DNA of 40,298 nt, taken from NCBI GenBank assembly GCA_034676385.1, contig JAUCCH010000055.1, forward strand, positions 1 to 40,298, written 5' to 3'. The position numbers and the translations under genes are program-made. Position 1 is the stretch's first letter. Each line of letters begins with the position of its first letter. The notes below the pieces were generated by a model. That model was not told the DNA's origin and did no database searches. It saw only the letters and a program-made list of their open reading frames with translations. Positions 1,375-40,298 of this stretch are shown here, piece by piece. The DNA is from Leucobacter sp. (lineage in GTDB: Bacteria > Actinomycetota > Actinomycetes > Actinomycetales > Microbacteriaceae).

Positions 1375-1791
1375 CTAAGCACTGACAAGAAGCTGGTCAC
1401 GTCGCAGATAAGCATAGCTTTGTGGTGCCGTTGAATTCGGTTCGACCTCTTTGAGCGGAAGCGGCTGCTCAAAAGACATAGCTTCCTCGACAACGATGGC
1501 AAATGCAATCTCTTTGCCCTCGTAGTAACTGAAAAATGCTGCCTGTCCAATTACCCCTGATTCGCCATAGCGAGCCCAGATAGCTTCGGGACTATCTTCA
1601 ACAATCTCATCAATATTGAATGTGCCTAGCACGCGGCTCACGGGCGCAGTCGCGTAAACGATCACAGTTTTTATGTCTGCAGCGAGCCGGCGCTTACGAA
1701 ATTCGACTGTCTTGGCGCCTTGAAAGATCGCTTCAGCGTACTCAGGGTGAATCGACATCAGTGCGACGCGTTCAGTTGCTGCTCGACCCAT
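1375..1791 (-). CDS. ASCH (PUA-like) domain protein
   Basis: 138 aa. 'LMSIHPEYAEAIFQGAKTVEFRKRR ... IAFAIVVEEAMSFEQPLPLKE' fits the ASCH beta-barrel pattern. It overlaps the upstream EVE gene by 34 nt on the same strand, consistent with an operon. Confidence 0.5.
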   Translation of the reverse strand: MGRAATERVALMSIHPEYAEAIFQGAKTVEFRKRRLAADIKTVIVYATAPVSRVLGTFNIDEIVEDSPEAIWARYGESGVIGQAAFFSYYEGKEIAFAIVVEEAMSFEQPLPLKEVEPNSTAPQSYAYLRRDQLLVSA

Positions 1792-2204
1792 GCAATACCC
1801 TCCGTGTTCTTGACTTCGACCACTGACTGAGGAGCAGCCTTGACCACCTTATTCGATATCAGCTCCGAAAGTCCCCAAGTTGGTATCATGAACCGATCAT
1901 GTCTAGACAAAATCGTCAAGACAGATCGCTTCCACCTTCCATGGAGCGCTTCGATCTCCACCGGAGAATATACGGTTCGCTTGAACGAGAGCGCCGCAGT
2001 TGCAGATGGGTCGATACCCTTATGGGATCCTTCAGCGATACCGACCGCGCTTACCGCACCATCACCCTTACGAGTTCCTTGAGAACGGTAGAAGAGAAGG
2101 AGCGCTCCAGGAGGAATGCTCGATTGAGGTGCTCTACACAGGTAAGCCTTTCGTATCGCATTACCGTGCGCACGAGTGTTTGTGTTTAATCCGGGAAGAA
2201 GCAT
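1758..2204 (-). CDS. EVE (PUA-like) domain protein
   Basis: 'NTRAHGNAIRKAYL...PPGALLLFYRSQGTRKGDGAVSAVGIAEG ... ILSRHDRFMIPTWGLSELI' parallels the EVE/THYN1 core (WDGVRNYQARNFLRxM..GDxxFFYHS....IVGIAEIV ... LFTRQRLSIQPLTxEEF). The first beta-strand appears to be missing. Confidence 0.5.
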   Translation of the reverse strand: MLLPGLNTNTRAHGNAIRKAYLCRAPQSSIPPGALLLFYRSQGTRKGDGAVSAVGIAEGSHKGIDPSATAALSFKRTVYSPVEIEALHGRWKRSVLTILSRHDRFMIPTWGLSELISNKVVKAAPQSVVEVKNTEGIAWVEQQLNASH

Positions 2205-2255
2205 GCTCCCTGAAGCACCGGGGACTTCCGCGTCTGGAAAAGTCCGTCATACCAC

Positions 2256-3287
2256 TCAGGGACGATTGGAACTACGAATATTGGTTGCCCGGCTCGAATC
2301 GCAGGAGGCCCATATTTGATATGAAACTATCCAGCCCAGTAGAGCTTTGACCTTCAGCGGGATCAAGGGTCTTGACATAGAAGCTTTCATCGCAGGTCTT
2401 CTTCCAGCGAGTCTGAATCCAAACTCAGGCAGGAACTCGGCCAACCGGTCCTTCTTATCTTTAACCTCAACAAAGATGTCACTCGGTCGTCCTGGCTCAC
2501 GTTCTGCCCAACGAAGAACGGCTTTTAAGAGCAATTCACCAAGACGACGCCCGTTTGCATGGTCGGCAACTTTGAATGTCGAGAGCTTGATCGCGCGTCG
2601 AAGGTTGTCGCTTGGATGTTCATCGGAAATCTTAAGAAGTGCAATGCCGTCGTAGGTTCCATCAGCTTGCCGAATAACCCAGCAGCGACGATTCACAGCG
2701 TCCCTTTTCAGCCGCCCTAGCCATGCGTCAAAATCAGGTGCATAATCTTCTCGCAAGCCGTCAAAGATGGATTGCGATGGATCAAGATTGTACGCAGGAA
2801 AAACCTCTACTTGCGGCGGCGGTAGCGGTGCCTCAGGATGCCAGAGGTTAAGCCGGTGTGCTGCTTCATCCGGACGGAGCACCCTTGGTTCGTGGCCAAG
2901 TTGAATTGCGCGAGAACGTAACTTCCTATCGTTCGTGACAAGAAAGTCCACAGCACCAATATGTAGCGCTGAGAGTATTCGTGCATCCCGTTGGTCGTTA
3001 TCGTTCAGATTTAATGGGTAGCAATCCCAAACCTCATCGGGCACTTGGGTTTCTTCTAGGGCCGCATACTTCCTAAAGGCAGCAAGGTTTTGCCGTCGAT
3101 GGGCCGGATCCCTTGTTTGCGAAAGGTCATCGCTTGATGCAGGGTGAACCCAAACTGTGTGCCCGTGCTTCGTTGCATGACTCAGAAAACGACTGACATG
3201 AGGCTGCACTCGTTCAAGTCCACCAGCGAAAGGCTCAGCTGCAATGATCACATTGGTATCGATCAAGAATGACATCGCTCGCTGCAT
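2256..3287 (-). CDS. PIN-domain nuclease fused to a C-terminal GNAT acetyltransferase domain
   Basis: N-terminus 'MSFLIDTNVIIAAEP ... NDQRDARILSALHIGAVDFLVTNDRKL' carries the PIN acidic-residue layout (D in IDTN, DARIL, VTND). The C-terminus 'CWVIRQADGTYDGIALLKI ... FKVADHANGRRLGELLLKAVLRWAE ... RLAEFLPEFGFRLAG' matches GNAT motifs A/B. A possible alternative start is the Met 4 codons downstream (MSFLID). Confidence 0.6.
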   Translation of the reverse strand: MQRAMSFLIDTNVIIAAEPFAGGLERVQPHVSRFLSHATKHGHTVWVHPASSDDLSQTRDPAHRRQNLAAFRKYAALEETQVPDEVWDCYPLNLNDNDQRDARILSALHIGAVDFLVTNDRKLRSRAIQLGHEPRVLRPDEAAHRLNLWHPEAPLPPPQVEVFPAYNLDPSQSIFDGLREDYAPDFDAWLGRLKRDAVNRRCWVIRQADGTYDGIALLKISDEHPSDNLRRAIKLSTFKVADHANGRRLGELLLKAVLRWAEREPGRPSDIFVEVKDKKDRLAEFLPEFGFRLAGRRPAMKASMSRPLIPLKVKALLGWIVSYQIWASCDSSRATNIRSSNRP

Positions 3288-3784: not shown

Positions 3785-3891
3785 AGATTGTATGGGCTGT
3801 GTCAAGTTTCGTAGACGTGAGAACGCTTGATTATTGATTACGGGCTGAAGATCAGGCCACAGCCCTTTCCGCTGCCTGGAGGTTTGAACGG

Positions 3892-4761
3892 TCAAAGAAC
3901 GCCTGCATCACCGACATCGGGGTGCGATACCCCGAGGGTGGAGTGGCGACGCTTCCGGTTGTAGAACACCTCAATATATTCAGCAACCGCAAGCCTTGCC
4001 CTCGCCCGGGTGGCATAGTGGTGATGATGCCAATGCTCGTTCTTCAGCGAAGCAAACCAGCTTTCGGCGACGGCATTGTCCCAGCACACCCCAGTTCTTC
4101 CCACTGAGAGTCTCAGATCCATCAGCCTGGCCGCGTCAGCGAATTCAGCAGACGTGTATTGGGCACCTTTGTCGCTGTGAAATATTGCGTTCCCGGCGGT
4201 GTAGCCGGCGCGATGCGCCATCGTGAGCGCATCAACCATCAGCGACGTTCTCATATGGGCTGCCGTCTGCCATCCGACCACCATTCTTGTGGTCAGATCA
4301 ATCACCGTCGCAAGATACAGCCAACCTTCGCCAGTTTTGAGGTACGTGATGTCGCCCACGAGGCAGGTTGTTGGAACCGGGGGTGTGAACCGACGCCCGA
4401 TGAAGTCACGCCGGATACCGGCATCGGGCGCGGGGATCGTGGTTCGTTTCGTGGCGCGCGGCTGAATCCCTTGAATCCCGAGCTCTCGCATGAGCTGCCA
4501 CACCAGCCATGGAGACACCGTCATCCCTTGAGCAGCAAGTTCGGCATGAATGCGCCGCACCCCAAGGATTTTGTGGTGATCGATCCAGATCTTCCCGATC
4601 AGATCGGAGAGCTCTTGCCGCCGTATCTTTCGGGCATCAGGTGCTGCATGTCGCCGCTGCTTCCATGCGTAAAAACCCGCACGATGCACTTTCAGCAGTC
4701 GACACATGAACGTGACAGCATGTTGGCCTTCTTCGTGTTCGATCAGCTCGTACTTGCGCAC
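3892..4761 (-). CDS. IS3-family transposase OrfB (rve/DDE integrase core); the C-terminus is altered by a 1-nt insertion relative to copy 2
   Basis: It is identical to copy 2 OrfB apart from one M/V substitution until '...RKRRHSTLG'. Then copy 1 has CCCC (3930-3933) where copy 2 has GGG on the other strand, giving 'VSHPDVGDAGVL*' instead of the consensus-like 'YRTPMSVMQAFF...'. Confidence 0.8.
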   Translation of the reverse strand: MRKYELIEHEEGQHAVTFMCRLLKVHRAGFYAWKQRRHAAPDARKIRRQELSDLIGKIWIDHHKILGVRRIHAELAAQGMTVSPWLVWQLMRELGIQGIQPRATKRTTIPAPDAGIRRDFIGRRFTPPVPTTCLVGDITYLKTGEGWLYLATVIDLTTRMVVGWQTAAHMRTSLMVDALTMAHRAGYTAGNAIFHSDKGAQYTSAEFADAARLMDLRLSVGRTGVCWDNAVAESWFASLKNEHWHHHHYATRARARLAVAEYIEVFYNRKRRHSTLGVSHPDVGDAGVL

Positions 4762-5066
4762 TACCGCTGTTCCTTCGCGAAGAAGGCCGCCGCTTTTTTT
4801 AGGAACGTGTTTTCCTCACGCAACCGGTTGATCTCACGTTGCATCTCGTGCGGGTCTTGCGAGTAAGGGTCAGGGGTTCGGCGGGCTGACCCTGAACCAG
4901 TGCCATGCGTGCCGGTTGCTTTCCCAACCCATTTCCCGAGCGTTGATTCGTTGATTTCTAGGTCGCGGGCGACCTGGGCTCGTGTTTTGCCGAGCTCGGT
5001 TACCATGCGCACAGCGTCGGCTTTGAACTCGTCACTGAACTCTCGACGGGGTCGGAGTGTAGACAT
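4761..5066 (-). CDS. IS3-family transposase OrfA (HTH)
   Basis: The 101-aa product is identical to copy 2 OrfA. An A7G (T7 on this strand, 4794-4800) slippery run lies near the 3' end, where OrfB overlaps in the -1 frame. Confidence 0.85.
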   Translation of the reverse strand: MSTLRPRREFSDEFKADAVRMVTELGKTRAQVARDLEINESTLGKWVGKATGTHGTGSGSARRTPDPYSQDPHEMQREINRLREENTFLKKAAAFFAKEQR

Positions 5067-5243
5067 CTGATGGGATTCCTTCCAATGGAGTTCTCCTGTC
5101 TACAACAAGCATGACACCTCAATTGATGACTGGAGGTAGCAATCATGCCCTGCCTGATTGGCCACCACCCATGCAGTTTCCTACTAGATGGGCTCACGAA
5201 CATGGTAACGGGGGAACTATTCACGAACAGCCCGGCGCGGAAA

Positions 5244-6144: not shown

Positions 6145-7147
6145 TTCTCCATACTGGACGATGCGGAGCTTGAAATGTATTGGGCACTCCGCTCGTCCTC
6201 ATAACCAGTTCCCCGGATGCATCGTCACCGCCTGGAACTCATTACTGCGGTTCAAGTCAGGGCGCCCGCTTGGAGTCCCGAGTAAACCTGGAGTTGACTC
6301 TTGACGGGGTACTTGGGGACTGAATGCATGTATCAACTTACTTTGTCGCATTGCACCCCTGGTCTCACGCGCCTGCGATGTCAAGATGCCGGTTTACCCC
6401 TTGGGCGAGAATACTCCTAGCTCTAGCGTCAACGGCTGGATCGCAGGAGCATCCTATCCCTCAAAATGTGTCGATCGTACCTGTAGCGTGTAGAGACCGT
6501 CAATATTGAGACGCCTTTCGCCGGATAGAGGTTCGCACGAACAAGGCCTGATCGGGCATGATGTCATCATGCTCATTGTCGTACTTGACTCCAATACCCT
6601 TCACTCGGATGCCTGGCTCACAGGACCACATGGTGGGAAGCTGGTCGATCTAGCCGCAGAGGGCCGCGTTCGAGTCGTAGTGCCCGAAGTCGTGCGGGAT
6701 GAAATCCTCCGTCAGCGCCGCGAAGCTGTCAAGAAAGCATGTAAAGAGGCCGACAAGGCATTGACCGCGATGGAGAAAGCCGGTGTCGATGTGAGTGAGT
6801 CGAAAGTCCGCCTGCAGGAGACCTTCGACAGGATAGACAGCGAACTCGATGACGCCTTCACGGAGCTCTTTGAAAGAGTCGGCGTCGTGATGGAGCCCAC
6901 CCCCGGGGTGAACGTCAACAAATATGTGGAACGCGACCTGGCACGTCGGCGTCCGTTTCTCGAAACTGAGCAGGAGCAGAAAAAGAAGAGTTTCGGCTTC
7001 AGAGATGTGGTGATCTGGGAAACAGTTCTCTCGGTTTTCGACGGAGCTGATCCAGGAGATACCATTCTGTTCGTCACCGCTGACAAAGGCTTCCTCGAGC
7101 GCGGTGAGCCCACGGTCCACCGTGACCTCCTCGAGGACCTCGATGAG

Positions 7148-8239
7148 CTAGTGTCCCGCGCCGGTAGTTCGTTGTAATAGTCTTTTGAGGGATTCGAGGA
7201 TCTGTTCGGCGGGCTTGGTCCAAACGAAGGGCTTCGGATTCTCGTTCCATCCTTTAACCCAGGAGCGGATATCGTTCTCCAGCGCCCGGACGCTGCGGTG
7301 ATCGGAGCGTTGGAGTAAGTCGGCAGTGATGTACGCGAAGAACCGCTCGACTTGGTTGATCCAGGACGAGTACGTCGGAGTGAAGTGCAGGTGGAACCGG
7401 GGATGCTTCTCCATCCAGGTGACGATGCTCGGGCTCTTGTGGGTGCTGTAGTTGTCGCAGACCAGATGCACGTCGAGGTGCTGGGGGACTGCGGCGTCGA
7501 TCTTGGCCAGAAACTTCCTGAACTCGATCGCCCGGTGGCGGCGGTGGATGCTGGAGATCACGGTGCCATCGGCGGTGTTGAATGCCGCGAACAGACTGGT
7601 CGTGCCATGCCGGACGTAGTCATGGGTACGTTTTTCGGGCATGCCCGGCATCATCGGGAATGCCGGCTGTGATCTCGCCAGGGCCTGCACCTGCGATTTC
7701 TCGTCGACGCAGTAGACGACGGCCGCTTCGGGCGGGTCAAGGTACAGGCCGACGATGTCGTAGACCTTGTCCACGAATTGTGGGTCGTTGGAGAGTTTGA
7801 ACCCGTCTTCTCGGTGCGGTTTCAGCTCGAACGCTTTCCAGATTCGACCGATCGTGGACTTCGACAATCCGGAGCGTTCGGCCATCTTCGCCCGCGACCA
7901 ATGCGTGGCATTCCTCGGCGTCGACTCCAACGTGGCCACGACCACATCTTCGACCTGTTCGGCCGTGATCGTCGCCGGCCGCCCCGGCCGCGGCTCATCG
8001 ACCAGGCCATCCAGACGAGCCTCCAAGAACCGAGCGCGCCATTTGCTGACCGTGTTCGTCGAGCAGCCCACCTGTGCAGCCACCGTCTTGTTGTCCAGGC
8101 CTCCGCCGCAGCCGAGCACGATCCGGGACCGCAACGCCAACGCTTGTGAGGACTTCGCCCGGCGGGACCAGCGCAGCAGCTGCTCGCGCTCCTCGTTACT
8201 CAGGATCAAGTCGGCTTTCGGGCGTCCTGTTCTCGGCAT
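7148..8239 (-). CDS. IS630-family transposase (HTH + DDE)
   Basis: The 363-aa product has an N-terminal HTH (STNTVSKWRARF), a DDE core (VYCVDEKSQ ... LVCDNYSTHKS ... WINQVERFF) and the typical length. Its stop codon TAG is completed by the host-side C of the CTAG target. Confidence 0.85.
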   Translation of the reverse strand: MPRTGRPKADLILSNEEREQLLRWSRRAKSSQALALRSRIVLGCGGGLDNKTVAAQVGCSTNTVSKWRARFLEARLDGLVDEPRPGRPATITAEQVEDVVVATLESTPRNATHWSRAKMAERSGLSKSTIGRIWKAFELKPHREDGFKLSNDPQFVDKVYDIVGLYLDPPEAAVVYCVDEKSQVQALARSQPAFPMMPGMPEKRTHDYVRHGTTSLFAAFNTADGTVISSIHRRHRAIEFRKFLAKIDAAVPQHLDVHLVCDNYSTHKSPSIVTWMEKHPRFHLHFTPTYSSWINQVERFFAYITADLLQRSDHRSVRALENDIRSWVKGWNENPKPFVWTKPAEQILESLKRLLQRTTGAGH

Positions 8240-8285
8240 ACCCCATTCTACAACTTAACCAGAGGATTTCAGGCGCGCAACACTA
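7149..8285 (-). mobile_element. IS630-family insertion sequence (~1133 bp) flanked by a duplicated TA within CTAG
   Basis: The ends read 'CTAGTGTCCCGCGCC...' on both strands (15-bp terminal IRs, 13/15 identical). TA is at 7149-7150 and 8284-8285. Precise excision restores a continuous ORF. Confidence 0.75.
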
Positions 8286-9019
8286 GGAGTCGAGCGCGGA
8301 CGCATCATAAACGCTAAGGCGCTCAACCATGTCCTGGCCGTCATCACAAGCCTGCAGGAAGCGTCTCGAGCCAATGTCGCGACCGAGGCGGTGTACGCTC
8401 TGGCAGGCGAAGAGGTCGGCATCCAGTTGGTGCACGGTGGGGACTACGGCTATCCTAACTTCGTCAAGTTCACGGTGCCCGGTTTCGAGAGCCCCACCAT
8501 TTCCGAACTAGAACTGACCACAGATTTCAAAATGACTGAGAACGGTTCCACGGTCACCGCAACAGCCGACGTCACTCTCTATCTCGACGGCGCAGTGTTT
8601 AAGGGTGACTGGTACGGCTCAGAGGACGAATTATTCCACGTCGGCTCAGAACTTAATCAGCACTATTTCGAAGCCGATGCTGAGATGACCGTTCGGGCCG
8701 TCGTCGAGCTCGATGTGAGTCGCGGTGATCCTGTCGTGACGAACATTGAGCTCCACGACAAAGAAGATGACTAGATAGCCCCGATTGCTCGACGAGCCCT
8801 AGATACGACATGGCGCCCTCTCTTGAGGTCATCTGCGAGGAATCGAATAATGCCGATTCAATGTGTATGGAAACACAGCTCCTGATCGTCGAACGTACGC
8901 CCGAGCGCAAGCACATCTACTGGTTTCCCACCTACTAAGCATCTTCTGGCTTCGAGAATCCGTGGTGGTTAGAGCGGTGAGAGAGTAAACCACCCGAGGA
9001 GGAGCACTGGATATCGATT

Positions 9020-9211
9020 GTGCTCGGCGACTGGGAGGTCGCGCGGTGCAAGTACGTCCTAGCAGGTCCACGTACGGAACGTGTATTCGGTGAACTTTTG
9101 CACGGACAGCTCGGCATTCTTGCACTAGAGGTCGCTGGCTCGATGCGCCGCAAGGGCCTCGGGCGTGCATCAGTCCAGGTCATCGGAATCCGAATCCCCT
9201 TTCACGATTGA
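9020..9211 (+). pseudogene. GNAT acetyltransferase fragment (motif A region only)
   Basis: 'GQLGILALEVAGSMRRKGLGRASV' resembles GNAT motif A. It is only 63 aa and sits in a non-coding-looking stretch. Confidence 0.25.
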
Positions 9212-20937: not shown

Positions 20938-21033
20938 TCGATGGTCCTGGCTGGTAGGCCAACCTGGAGTGTACTTCAGCGTTGAGCGCACCGACCCTCT
21001 ACGCTCGCTGTGTGGTTTTACGAAATAGTTGCG

Positions 21034-21073
21034 GCTTCAACTAAATTTCTGTTACATTGAATTTAGTTGAAGC
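21034..21073. promoter_or_regulatory. 14-bp perfect AT-rich inverted repeat (GCTTCAACTAAATT-N12-AATTTAGTTGAAGC), candidate operator
   Basis: Read directly from the sequence. It sits in an unusually AT-rich intergenic region and overlaps the 5' end of the TTG-start ORF; the likely real ATG is at 21139. Confidence 0.5.
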
Positions 21074-21138
21074 ATCAATTATTTGATTGTTTCGATGGAT
21101 ATCTTGTTCATCATTCACTTAAGAATCACGGAGACACC

Positions 21139-38960: not shown

Positions 38961-39030
38961 GTTTCAAGCCTAGTCTGAGGTGTCATGCTTGTTGTAGACA
39001 GGAGAACTCCATTGGAAGGAATCCCATCAG

Positions 39031-39336
39031 ATGTCTACACTCCGACCCCGTCGAGAGTTCAGTGACGAGTTCAAAGCCGACGCTGTGCGCATGGTAACCG
39101 AGCTCGGCAAAACACGAGCCCAGGTCGCCCGCGACCTAGAAATCAACGAATCAACGCTCGGGAAATGGGTTGGGAAAGCAACCGGCACGCATGGCACTGG
39201 TTCAGGGTCAGCCCGCCGAACCCCTGACCCTTACTCGCAAGACCCGCACGAGATGCAACGTGAGATCAACCGGTTGCGTGAGGAAAACACGTTCCTAAAA
39301 AAAGCGGCGGCCTTCTTCGCGAAGGAACAGCGGTAG
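39031..39336 (+). CDS. IS3-family transposase OrfA (HTH)
   Basis: Identical to copy 1 OrfA. Confidence 0.85.
   Translation: MSTLRPRREFSDEFKADAVRMVTELGKTRAQVARDLEINESTLGKWVGKATGTHGTGSGSARRTPDPYSQDPHEMQREINRLREENTFLKKAAAFFAKEQR
39297..39304 (+). other. A7G slippery run for programmed -1 ribosomal frameshifting (OrfA to OrfAB)
   Basis: 'CTAAAAAAAGCG' lies 30 nt before the orfA stop. The -1 frame is open from here into orfB (KKSGGLLREGTAVV-RKYELIEH...), as in IS3/IS911-type elements. Confidence 0.6.
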
Positions 39337-40244
39337 TGCGCAAGTACGAGCTGATCGAACACGAAGAAGGCCAACATGCTGTCACGTTCATGTGTCGACT
39401 GCTGAAAGTGCATCGTGCGGGTTTTTACGCATGGAAGCAGCGGCGACATGCAGCACCTGATGCCCGAAAGATACGGCGGCAAGAGCTCTCCGATCTGATC
39501 GGGAAGATCTGGATCGATCACCACAAAATCCTTGGGGTGCGGCGCATTCATGCCGAACTTGCTGCTCAAGGGATGACGGTGTCTCCATGGCTGGTGTGGC
39601 AGCTCATGCGAGAGCTCGGGATTCAAGGGATTCAGCCGCGCGCCACGAAACGAACCACGATCCCCGCGCCCGATGCCGGTATCCGGCGTGACTTCATCGG
39701 GCGTCGGTTCACACCCCCGGTTCCAACAACCTGCCTCGTGGGCGACATCACGTACCTCAAAACTGGCGAAGGTTGGCTGTATCTTGCGACGGTGATTGAT
39801 CTGACCACAAGAATGGTGGTCGGATGGCAGACGGCAGCCCATATGAGAACGTCGCTGGTGGTTGATGCGCTCACGATGGCGCATCGCGCCGGCTACACCG
39901 CCGGGAACGCAATATTTCACAGCGACAAAGGTGCCCAATACACGTCTGCTGAATTCGCTGACGCGGCCAGGCTGATGGATCTGAGACTCTCAGTGGGAAG
40001 AACTGGGGTGTGCTGGGACAATGCCGTCGCCGAAAGCTGGTTTGCTTCGCTGAAGAACGAGCATTGGCATCATCACCACTATGCCACCCGGGCGAGGGCA
40101 AGGCTTGCGGTTGCTGAATATATTGAGGTGTTCTACAACCGGAAGCGTCGCCACTCCACCCTCGGGTATCGCACCCCGATGTCGGTGATGCAGGCGTTCT
40201 TTGACCGTTCAAACCTCCAGGCAGCGGAAAGGGCTGTGGCCTGA
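39336..40244 (+). CDS. IS3-family transposase OrfB (rve integrase core, DDE), intact copy
   Basis: The 302-aa product ends with the family-typical '...RKRRHSTLGYRTPMSVMQAFF'. The GTG start overlaps the orfA stop. Confidence 0.85.
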   Translation: MRKYELIEHEEGQHAVTFMCRLLKVHRAGFYAWKQRRHAAPDARKIRRQELSDLIGKIWIDHHKILGVRRIHAELAAQGMTVSPWLVWQLMRELGIQGIQPRATKRTTIPAPDAGIRRDFIGRRFTPPVPTTCLVGDITYLKTGEGWLYLATVIDLTTRMVVGWQTAAHMRTSLVVDALTMAHRAGYTAGNAIFHSDKGAQYTSAEFADAARLMDLRLSVGRTGVCWDNAVAESWFASLKNEHWHHHHYATRARARLAVAEYIEVFYNRKRRHSTLGYRTPMSVMQAFFDRSNLQAAERAVA

Positions 40245-40298
40245 TCTTCAGCCCGTAATCAATAATCAAGCGTTCTCACGTCTACGAAACTTGACACA

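Follow-up and report, generated by a model that had tools for sequence, protein, structure and literature searches.

Layout of the locus

The window analysed here is a stretch of 40,298 bp (GC 58%) of Leucobacter sp. contig JAUCCH010000055.1, in which an element of the insertion sequence (IS) family IS630 has almost certainly interrupted, at a CTAG site, the chromosomal gene of a protein of about 356 amino acids with a PIN_12 domain. The gene lies on the plus strand and is divided by the element into a 5' and a 3' part, while the single open reading frame (ORF) of the element, a transposase, lies on the minus strand; the coordinates of all features are collected in Table 1. The tetranucleotide CTAG is found at both ends of the element, with its central TA at 7149-7150 and 8284-8285. 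An earlier note on this DNA had placed CTAG and TA at these positions, and all of them hold when the sequence is read again.

Read inward from CTAG, the two ends are CTAGTGTCCCGCGCC (plus strand, from 7148) and CTAGTGTTGCGCGCC (minus strand, from 8286). The earlier note had described them as terminal inverted repeats of 15 bp; the ends are as described, but the repeat is imperfect, with 13 of its 15 positions identical when CTAG is counted. Alignment of both ends shows a weaker repeat extending to about 23 bp, and within the element proper the sequences TGTCCCGCGCC and TGTTGCGCGCC agree at 9 of 11 positions. In related copies the terminal repeat has the consensus TGTC(C/G)(T/C)GCGCC. The end motif occurs at only these two sites in the window (0.38 sites expected with at most two mismatches), and CTAG itself is depleted, with 56 occurrences where base composition predicts 149.

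The closest uninterrupted homologue of the divided gene is found on a 73-kb contig (locus L001), and the blastn alignment between the two loci places window positions 6553-7148 at L001 10006-10604 and window positions 8286-9168 at L001 10607-11486. Both flanks thus map side by side in L001, and the break in homology (7148 / 8286) is exact to the base. The insertion structure is far beyond chance, since a single uninterrupted gene elsewhere matches both flanks, with a base-exact break. The size and layout of the element, with 1131 bp, short inverted repeats and a single ORF of 363 amino acids, fit the IS630 family.

Family assignment of the transposase

The transposase is recognised by the NCBIfam equivalog profile NF033545 (transpos_IS630) with a score of 263.8 bits against a cutoff of 100, and 296 of the 299 profile positions are covered. 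Pfam detects DDE_3 (6e-22), HTH_32 (1.2e-18, residues 63-134) and HTH_29 (1.3e-12, residues 39-95), as well as HTH_23 and HTH_28, and the bipartite N-terminal helix-turn-helix (HTH) region expected of the IS630 family is present. Three acidic residues, D179 (in CVDEKS), D262 (in CDNYSTH) and E298 (in NQVERFF), are intact in the window transposase and conserved at 96-99% across 136 aligned related copies; motif and conservation together point to them as the catalytic triad. The 35 residues that separate D262 from E298 correspond to the DD35E arrangement. The family proposed in the earlier note is thus borne out by the profile score, by DDE_3 together with HTH_32 and HTH_29, and by the DD35E spacing. 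Three other families were considered and rejected, the NCBIfam scores for IS481 (58.7 bits against a cutoff of 224), IS21 (33.7 against 160) and IS3 (27.4 against 160) being all far under their cutoffs.

The GC content at third codon positions (GC3) of the transposase ORF is 0.80, as compared with about 0.45-0.66 in the neighbouring ORFs, and this high value suggests that the element was acquired from a donor of higher GC content. A search of the PDB sequences with the transposase returned nothing meaningful, and a scan of viral contigs found no relatives. The exact 363-residue transposase is absent from a collection of 15 billion proteins, although two other products of the same contig, cydA and the truncated PIN_12 protein (entry P0002), are present in it; from this absence, the source annotation probably used another start for the transposase or flagged the gene as a pseudogene.

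The interrupted PIN_12 gene

When 6506..7150 is joined to 8286..8774, the resulting 1134 nt contain no stop and read ...LEDLDEL/GVERGRIINAK... across the junction. From the ATG at 6569, which is the start seen in the homologues (these begin MLxVVLD), the rejoined frame encodes a protein of 356 amino acids, the removed segment being 1135 bp long. The empty site expected after precise removal would read ...GAGCTAGGAGTC.... The earlier note had phrased this operation as the deletion of 7151..8285 plus one TA; the in-frame join is correct, but the TA was counted twice, since 7151..8285 (1135 bp) already includes one. In the rejoined protein, PIN_12 (PF16289) scores 87 bits against a cutoff of 32, with residues 4-175 aligned to profile positions 1-172 of 172.

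As the locus now stands, the 5' part of the gene continues into the element for eight residues, VSRAGSSL, and ends at a stop. The note had attributed the last nine codons of this ORF to the junction; the tail is indeed element-encoded, but it comprises 8 sense codons, and nine only if the stop is counted. Entry P0002 (202 amino acids) consists of the 5' fragment plus this tail, and it is the sole database entry that is 100% identical. On the other side of the element, the listed ORF 8391..8774 represents merely the distal portion of the 3' part.

A search of 5.8 billion proteins yielded 45 relatives of the rejoined protein, the best of them with 76% identity, and about 40 are single proteins of 352-473 amino acids that cover 96-100% of the query. 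In an alignment of 15 sequences the junction L194/G195 falls within a gap-free block, DLLxDLDxRGIDRxR, and all 65 invariant columns are kept in the window copy. At the DNA level, the alignment with L001 is contiguous over the empty site. The earlier note had taken the two ORFs for the halves of a single gene and had pointed to uninterrupted alleles in relatives as the place to look; with about 40 full-length homologues that are gap-free over the junction, and with contiguous DNA in L001, this view stands.

The AlphaFold model of the rejoined protein (mean predicted local distance difference test score, pLDDT, 81.6) has a PIN-like alpha/beta N-terminal domain, and places the insertion point just past helix 185-193, between this domain and a long helix followed by a beta-rich C-terminal domain. 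When the model was compared with the PDB by Foldseek, the matches were weak (VapC PIN domains and NTF2-like folds), and none reached E <=0.001. PADLOC found no credible defence system for the rejoined protein, the only match being PtuB at E = 0.0017. A conserved two-gene module of the toxin-antitoxin type was also considered and dropped, as no fixed partner gene is seen at four intact homologue loci. Elsewhere, a Microbacterium-like contig (L162, 1222-3825) carries two adjacent PIN_12 paralogues of 380 and 333 amino acids, and in L001 and L166 the neighbours of the PIN_12 gene include transposases, an integrase, GmrSD and other island-type genes.

A stop codon taken from the target

The stop codon of the transposase, TAG, is the reverse complement of positions 7148-7150 and therefore lies outside the conserved TGTC...GACA core. 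TAG follows immediately after ...GACA-C in 136 related copies, and 132 related ORFs are exactly 363 amino acids long; the creation of the stop by the junction, which the earlier note had described for this copy, is the same in all 136. Copies flanked by CTAC read through the junction, for 31 codons in L078 and for 152 codons in L060, and a copy whose flank is mutated to CTGG reads through for 26 codons. Because the element has no stop of its own, correct termination of the transposase hinges on the duplicated target, and the choice of target would thereby be coupled to the integrity of the transposase.

The target-supplied stop is a real and already known feature. A passage in PMC13630536 (citing Fournier, Paulus & Otten 1993 and Mariani et al. 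1993) describes it for IS870 of Agrobacterium vitis and ISMt1 of Mycobacterium tuberculosis, which likewise have no internal stop and obtain TAG from a CTAG target; the likeness of these two elements to the one in the window is by description only.

Related copies and the target site

We scanned one genome per species (484 relatives) and metagenomes (557 relatives), and from these approximately 1,000 copies we retrieved and read 160. Among the 139 copies in which both ends are readable, 128 have the arrangement CTAG/TGTC...GACA/CTAG at both ends, and 133 keep the TA unchanged at both; a further 21 copies have CTAG at their sole readable end. Counting unique flank pairs, the set represents 121 insertions (L002-L161, L167), and in these each of the four positions of the target carries 1.7-1.9 bits of information, the flanks approximately none. 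A weak palindromic extension is also present around CTAG, with C at -3 (0.48 bit) and G at +3 (0.27 bit), giving the extended preference CNNCTAGNNG.

The nearest copy among those retrieved is from Agromyces bauzanensis, with 94% protein and 89% DNA identity, and by this comparison the window element is a member of the IS630 family distinct from every retrieved copy. A megablast search against plasmids gave partial matches only, at 72-76% identity. In draft genomes of several Actinomycetota we find separate contigs of exactly 1139 bp that run from CTAG to CTAG (L002, L007, L035, L038, L045, L047 and L048), in which the repeat of this IS clade has collapsed. One of them bears the name of a betaproteobacterium, Advenella sp. 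FME57, which suggests either contamination or cross-phylum transfer.

Two or four duplicated bases

Duplication of TA, 2 bp in length, is regarded as a hallmark of the IS630/Tc1/mariner superfamily. The 2-bp and 4-bp models are indistinguishable in the window copy, because a CTAG target combined with element ends G...C yields the same sequence under both; the assignment to the IS630 family, made by transposase homology, holds whichever length is right. Five related copies have other tetranucleotides at their ends, and in each the same four bases stand on the left and on the right, with unrelated outer flanks: TTAG in L004, GTAG in L026 and L085, and CTAC in L060 and L078. The core of L026 is 100% identical over 1132 bp to that of the CTAG-flanked L023, the core of L078 is 99.9% identical to that of the CTAG-flanked L081 in the same genome, and the core of L060 is 98.9% identical to those of L075 and L079, also in the same genome. 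The non-canonical repeats stand in direct orientation (CTAC/CTAC and not CTAC/GTAG), which makes them target duplications and not part of the inverted repeat. These natural variants, five independent copies that repeat the whole tetranucleotide, three of them with near-identical CTAG-flanked siblings, argue that this clade probably duplicates 4 bp, in which case the mobile unit is 7152..8282. Copies with unequal ends also exist (L100, L127/L129 with CTAG/CTGG, L143 with ATAG/CTAG, L011 and L146), and these are best read as the result of changes after insertion.

The alternative is the canonical IS630 geometry, in which TA alone is duplicated and the element includes the G...C ends, and several points speak for it and against four duplicated bases. 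A table in PMC2577343 (citing Tenzen & Ohtsubo 1991) lists IS630 with 2 bp duplicated inside CTAG; for ISY100, duplication of TA is seen in vitro, and the authors of that study report no fundamental difference within the superfamily (PMC2170065); and L143, with ATAG/CTAG, is the sole copy that fits the TA-only pattern. However, TA-only duplication would need a mutation of the terminal base that matches the opposite flank by chance, and would need it five times, in three cases within cores that are 98.9-100% identical to CTAG-flanked siblings. L143 itself lies on a contig of 2.85x coverage and has a broken ORF, which makes a post-insertion change plausible there, and the TA too is altered in L100 and L127 (CTGG). 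We therefore consider TA-only duplication unlikely for this clade, and of the claim in the earlier note of a CTAG target with TA duplication we retain the CTAG, which is seen in the window and in the related copies, while the duplication is probably one of four bases.

The other papers found on IS630 and CTAG do not address the length of the duplication. As a broader and more tentative proposal, to which as a whole we give less than even odds, the actinobacterial branch of IS630 may integrate by a 4-nt stagger that duplicates CTAG (occasionally CTAC/GTAG or TTAG), and a 4-bp duplication may so far be unrecorded for these elements.

Comparison with known elements

IS630 of Shigella sonnei resembles the window element in its single DDE transposase with an N-terminal HTH, its short inverted repeats, its length of about 1.1 kb and its strong preference for a palindromic CTAG target with central TA. 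It differs in that TA alone is reportedly duplicated there, whereas four bases are indicated by the natural variants of the clade described here, and the two are distant, as the tblastn matches on enterobacterial plasmids (Salmonella, Klebsiella, Shigella) are all below 60% identity. ISY100 of Synechocystis shares the architecture of the superfamily and serves as a model for cut-and-paste transposition in which the transposase alone is sufficient (PMC2170065). Unlike the clade of the window element, in which 96% of sites are CTAG and the duplication is apparently 4 bp, ISY100 accepts almost any TA as its target and duplicates that dinucleotide.

Closer relatives are found on plasmids of Rhodococcus, Corynebacterium and Streptomyces, in elements annotated as carrying an 'IS630 family transposase' (including the ISRjo2 family), with 66-78% amino acid identity over the full length. 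The best plasmid match, from Rhodococcus pyridinivorans, has the same CTAG/TGTC...GACA/CTAG ends. The copies annotated as ISRjo2 differ from the window element, with 72% DNA identity over merely 40% of its length.

The surrounding region

On the 3' side of the interrupted gene lies a small GNAT-like pseudogene, and its orthologue in L001 (motif RRKGxGRA) lies directly 3' of the intact PIN_12 gene. A small acetyltransferase gene also lies 3' of the PIN_12 gene in L164 and L165, and not in the other homologous loci. To the left of the interrupted gene, the minus-strand region 1375-3287 is a candidate PDC-M11 defence system by PADLOC, with PDC-M11B intact and PDC-M11A, split in two ORFs, probably a frameshifted pseudogene; the N-terminal PDC-M11A piece has PIN_3 and GNAT domains in Pfam. 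The housekeeping region further right (cydAB, pepN, fpg and others) has a higher GC3 than roughly the first 10 kb, and positions 1 to ~10.4 kb form an accessory, defence-like island in decay. Because the host ORF is without internal damage in its 356 codons, the insertion is probably younger than the decay of the neighbouring gene.

Two copies of an IS3-family element bracket approximately 34 kb of the window in inverted orientation, and a 1-bp indel in a C-run near 3929 alters the C-terminus of orfB (289 vs 302 amino acids). Such an inverted pair could permit inversion of the chromosome segment between the copies. Between the fpg-like and yceI-like genes, at 21023-21084, an AT-rich inverted repeat of 25 nt (88% complementary, 12-nt loop) stands out in the 58% GC window.

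Table 1. Positions of the features of the interrupted gene, the IS630-family element and the surrounding region in the 40,298-bp window
Feature	Position	Strand	Basis and remarks
Host gene, 5' part, residues 1-194	6569..7150	plus	PIN_12 at residues 4-175; Pfam PIN_12 2.6e-24
Left target copy, CTAG	7148..7151	none	sequence; minus strand 7150-7148 is the transposase stop TAG
Mobile unit of the IS630-family element, 1131 bp, TGTC...GACA (probable extent)	7152..8282	minus	L001 break, conserved ends, GC3
Alternative extent of the element, 1133 bp, if TA alone is taken as the duplication (unlikely)	7151..8283		
Transposase ORF, 363 aa	7148..8239	minus	N-terminal HTH domains, DDE_3 catalytic domain; last sense codon 7151-7153, stop 7148-7150
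Element-encoded tail (8 residues) and TAA stop ending the truncated host protein	7151..7177	plus	translation
Terminal inverted repeat at the transposase 3' end, TGTCCCGCGCCGGTAGTTCGTTG	7152..7174		end alignment; also codes the transposase C-terminus
Terminal inverted repeat at the transposase 5' end, reverse complement TGTTGCGCGCCTGAAATCCTCTG	8260..8282		end alignment
Candidate promoter-like site, CTGAAA-16 nt-TAGAAT	8245..8272	minus	consensus scan only, 9/12 matches; 5' of the transposase ATG, partly in the inverted repeat
Right target copy, CTAG	8283..8286	none	sequence and related copies
Host gene, 3' part, residues 195-356, beta-rich C-terminal domain, without its own start	8286..8774	plus	in-frame join, gap-free alignments, structure model
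GNAT-like pseudogene, truncated, two in-frame stops	8906..9202	plus	tblastn of the 142-aa L001 product, 58% identity over 99 residues
PDC-M11B, intact	1375-1791	minus	PADLOC, E 1.9e-46
PDC-M11A, split in two ORFs	2256-3287 and 1758-2204	minus	PADLOC; profile positions 1-288 of 486 and 353-485
IS3-family element, copy 1	3798-5121		orfA (HTH_Tnp_1) 4761-5066, orfB (rve) 3892-4761; ~2 kb from the IS630-family element
IS3-family element, copy 2	38976-40298		inverted relative to copy 1, reaching the contig end

Interpretation

The locus is an ordinary gene-disrupting insertion. What is observed directly is the family of the element, its boundaries, its target, the derivation of both ORFs from a single gene, and the stop that the target supplies. 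By analogy with ISY100 and IS630, the element would have moved by cut-and-paste, and the natural variants suggest that it would have integrated with a 4-bp stagger, duplicating the whole tetranucleotide. Insertion after codon 194 has left a 202-residue fragment, consisting of the PIN domain and the eight-residue tail, and an orphaned 3' part of 162 codons, and with its gene reduced to these two pieces the host function is presumably inactivated. We infer a loss-of-function hit in an already decaying island and not a regulated switch.

Some observations weigh against this reading of an IS630-family insertion in a PIN_12 gene, which we nevertheless hold with high confidence. The orthologous site in L001 reads GCGCGG and not GCTAGG, which makes the CTAG particular to the lineage of the window. 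An empty-site allele of that same lineage was not found among 5.8 billion proteins, in which the nearest intact homologue is 76% identical, and for this reason the pre-insertion sequence is reconstructed from that homologue. In the window copy the transposase-proximal repeat has TGTT where nearly all relatives have TGTC, and the transposition activity of this copy is a prediction from its sequence.

The earlier note had also stressed that excision restores the reading frame, and one could imagine a reversible switch in which precise excision, at a useful frequency, restores the PIN_12 gene and produces on/off variation. Removal of the element with one target copy does reopen the 356-codon frame with all conserved residues intact, and both the transposase ORF and its DDE triad are intact, so the arithmetic behind the idea is true. 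However, restoration of the frame is automatic for any clean insertion, and we find no evidence that excision occurs or serves as a switch. In this superfamily the transposase cleaves the 3' strand at the end of the element and the 5' strand 2 nt inside it, leaving a double-strand break (PMC2170065), and from this mechanism precise resealing of the donor would not be expected without other repair. No intact allele above 76% identity is found among the 5.8 billion proteins, and the partner gene downstream has already become a pseudogene and other neighbours are broken, which points to decay instead of regulated switching; a switch is therefore very improbable. An artefact of assembly, in which a repeat contig was misplaced between unrelated pieces or in which the flanks are two separate genes, is more improbable still and hardly credible. 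The family does often assemble as separate 1139-bp contigs, a known source of ambiguity, but in L001 a single gene and its downstream neighbour match the two flanks in the same order, the base-exact break leaves one copy of the target on either side, about 40 homologues exist as single proteins, and a chimera would not rebuild a perfect in-frame target duplication.

For annotation, this means that the ORFs 6569..7177 ('PIN domain') and 8391..8774 ('hypothetical') are to be described as a single pseudogene into which an IS630-family element has inserted. For the family, the natural variants in 160 copies provide an inexpensive argument for a 4-base duplication in one IS630 clade, which is a modest result. 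Insertions at CTAC would lengthen the transposase by 31-152 residues. If the 4-base duplication is confirmed, the stagger of strand transfer would not be fixed across the superfamily, and this clade would offer a simple system for how CTAG recognition and stagger are set.

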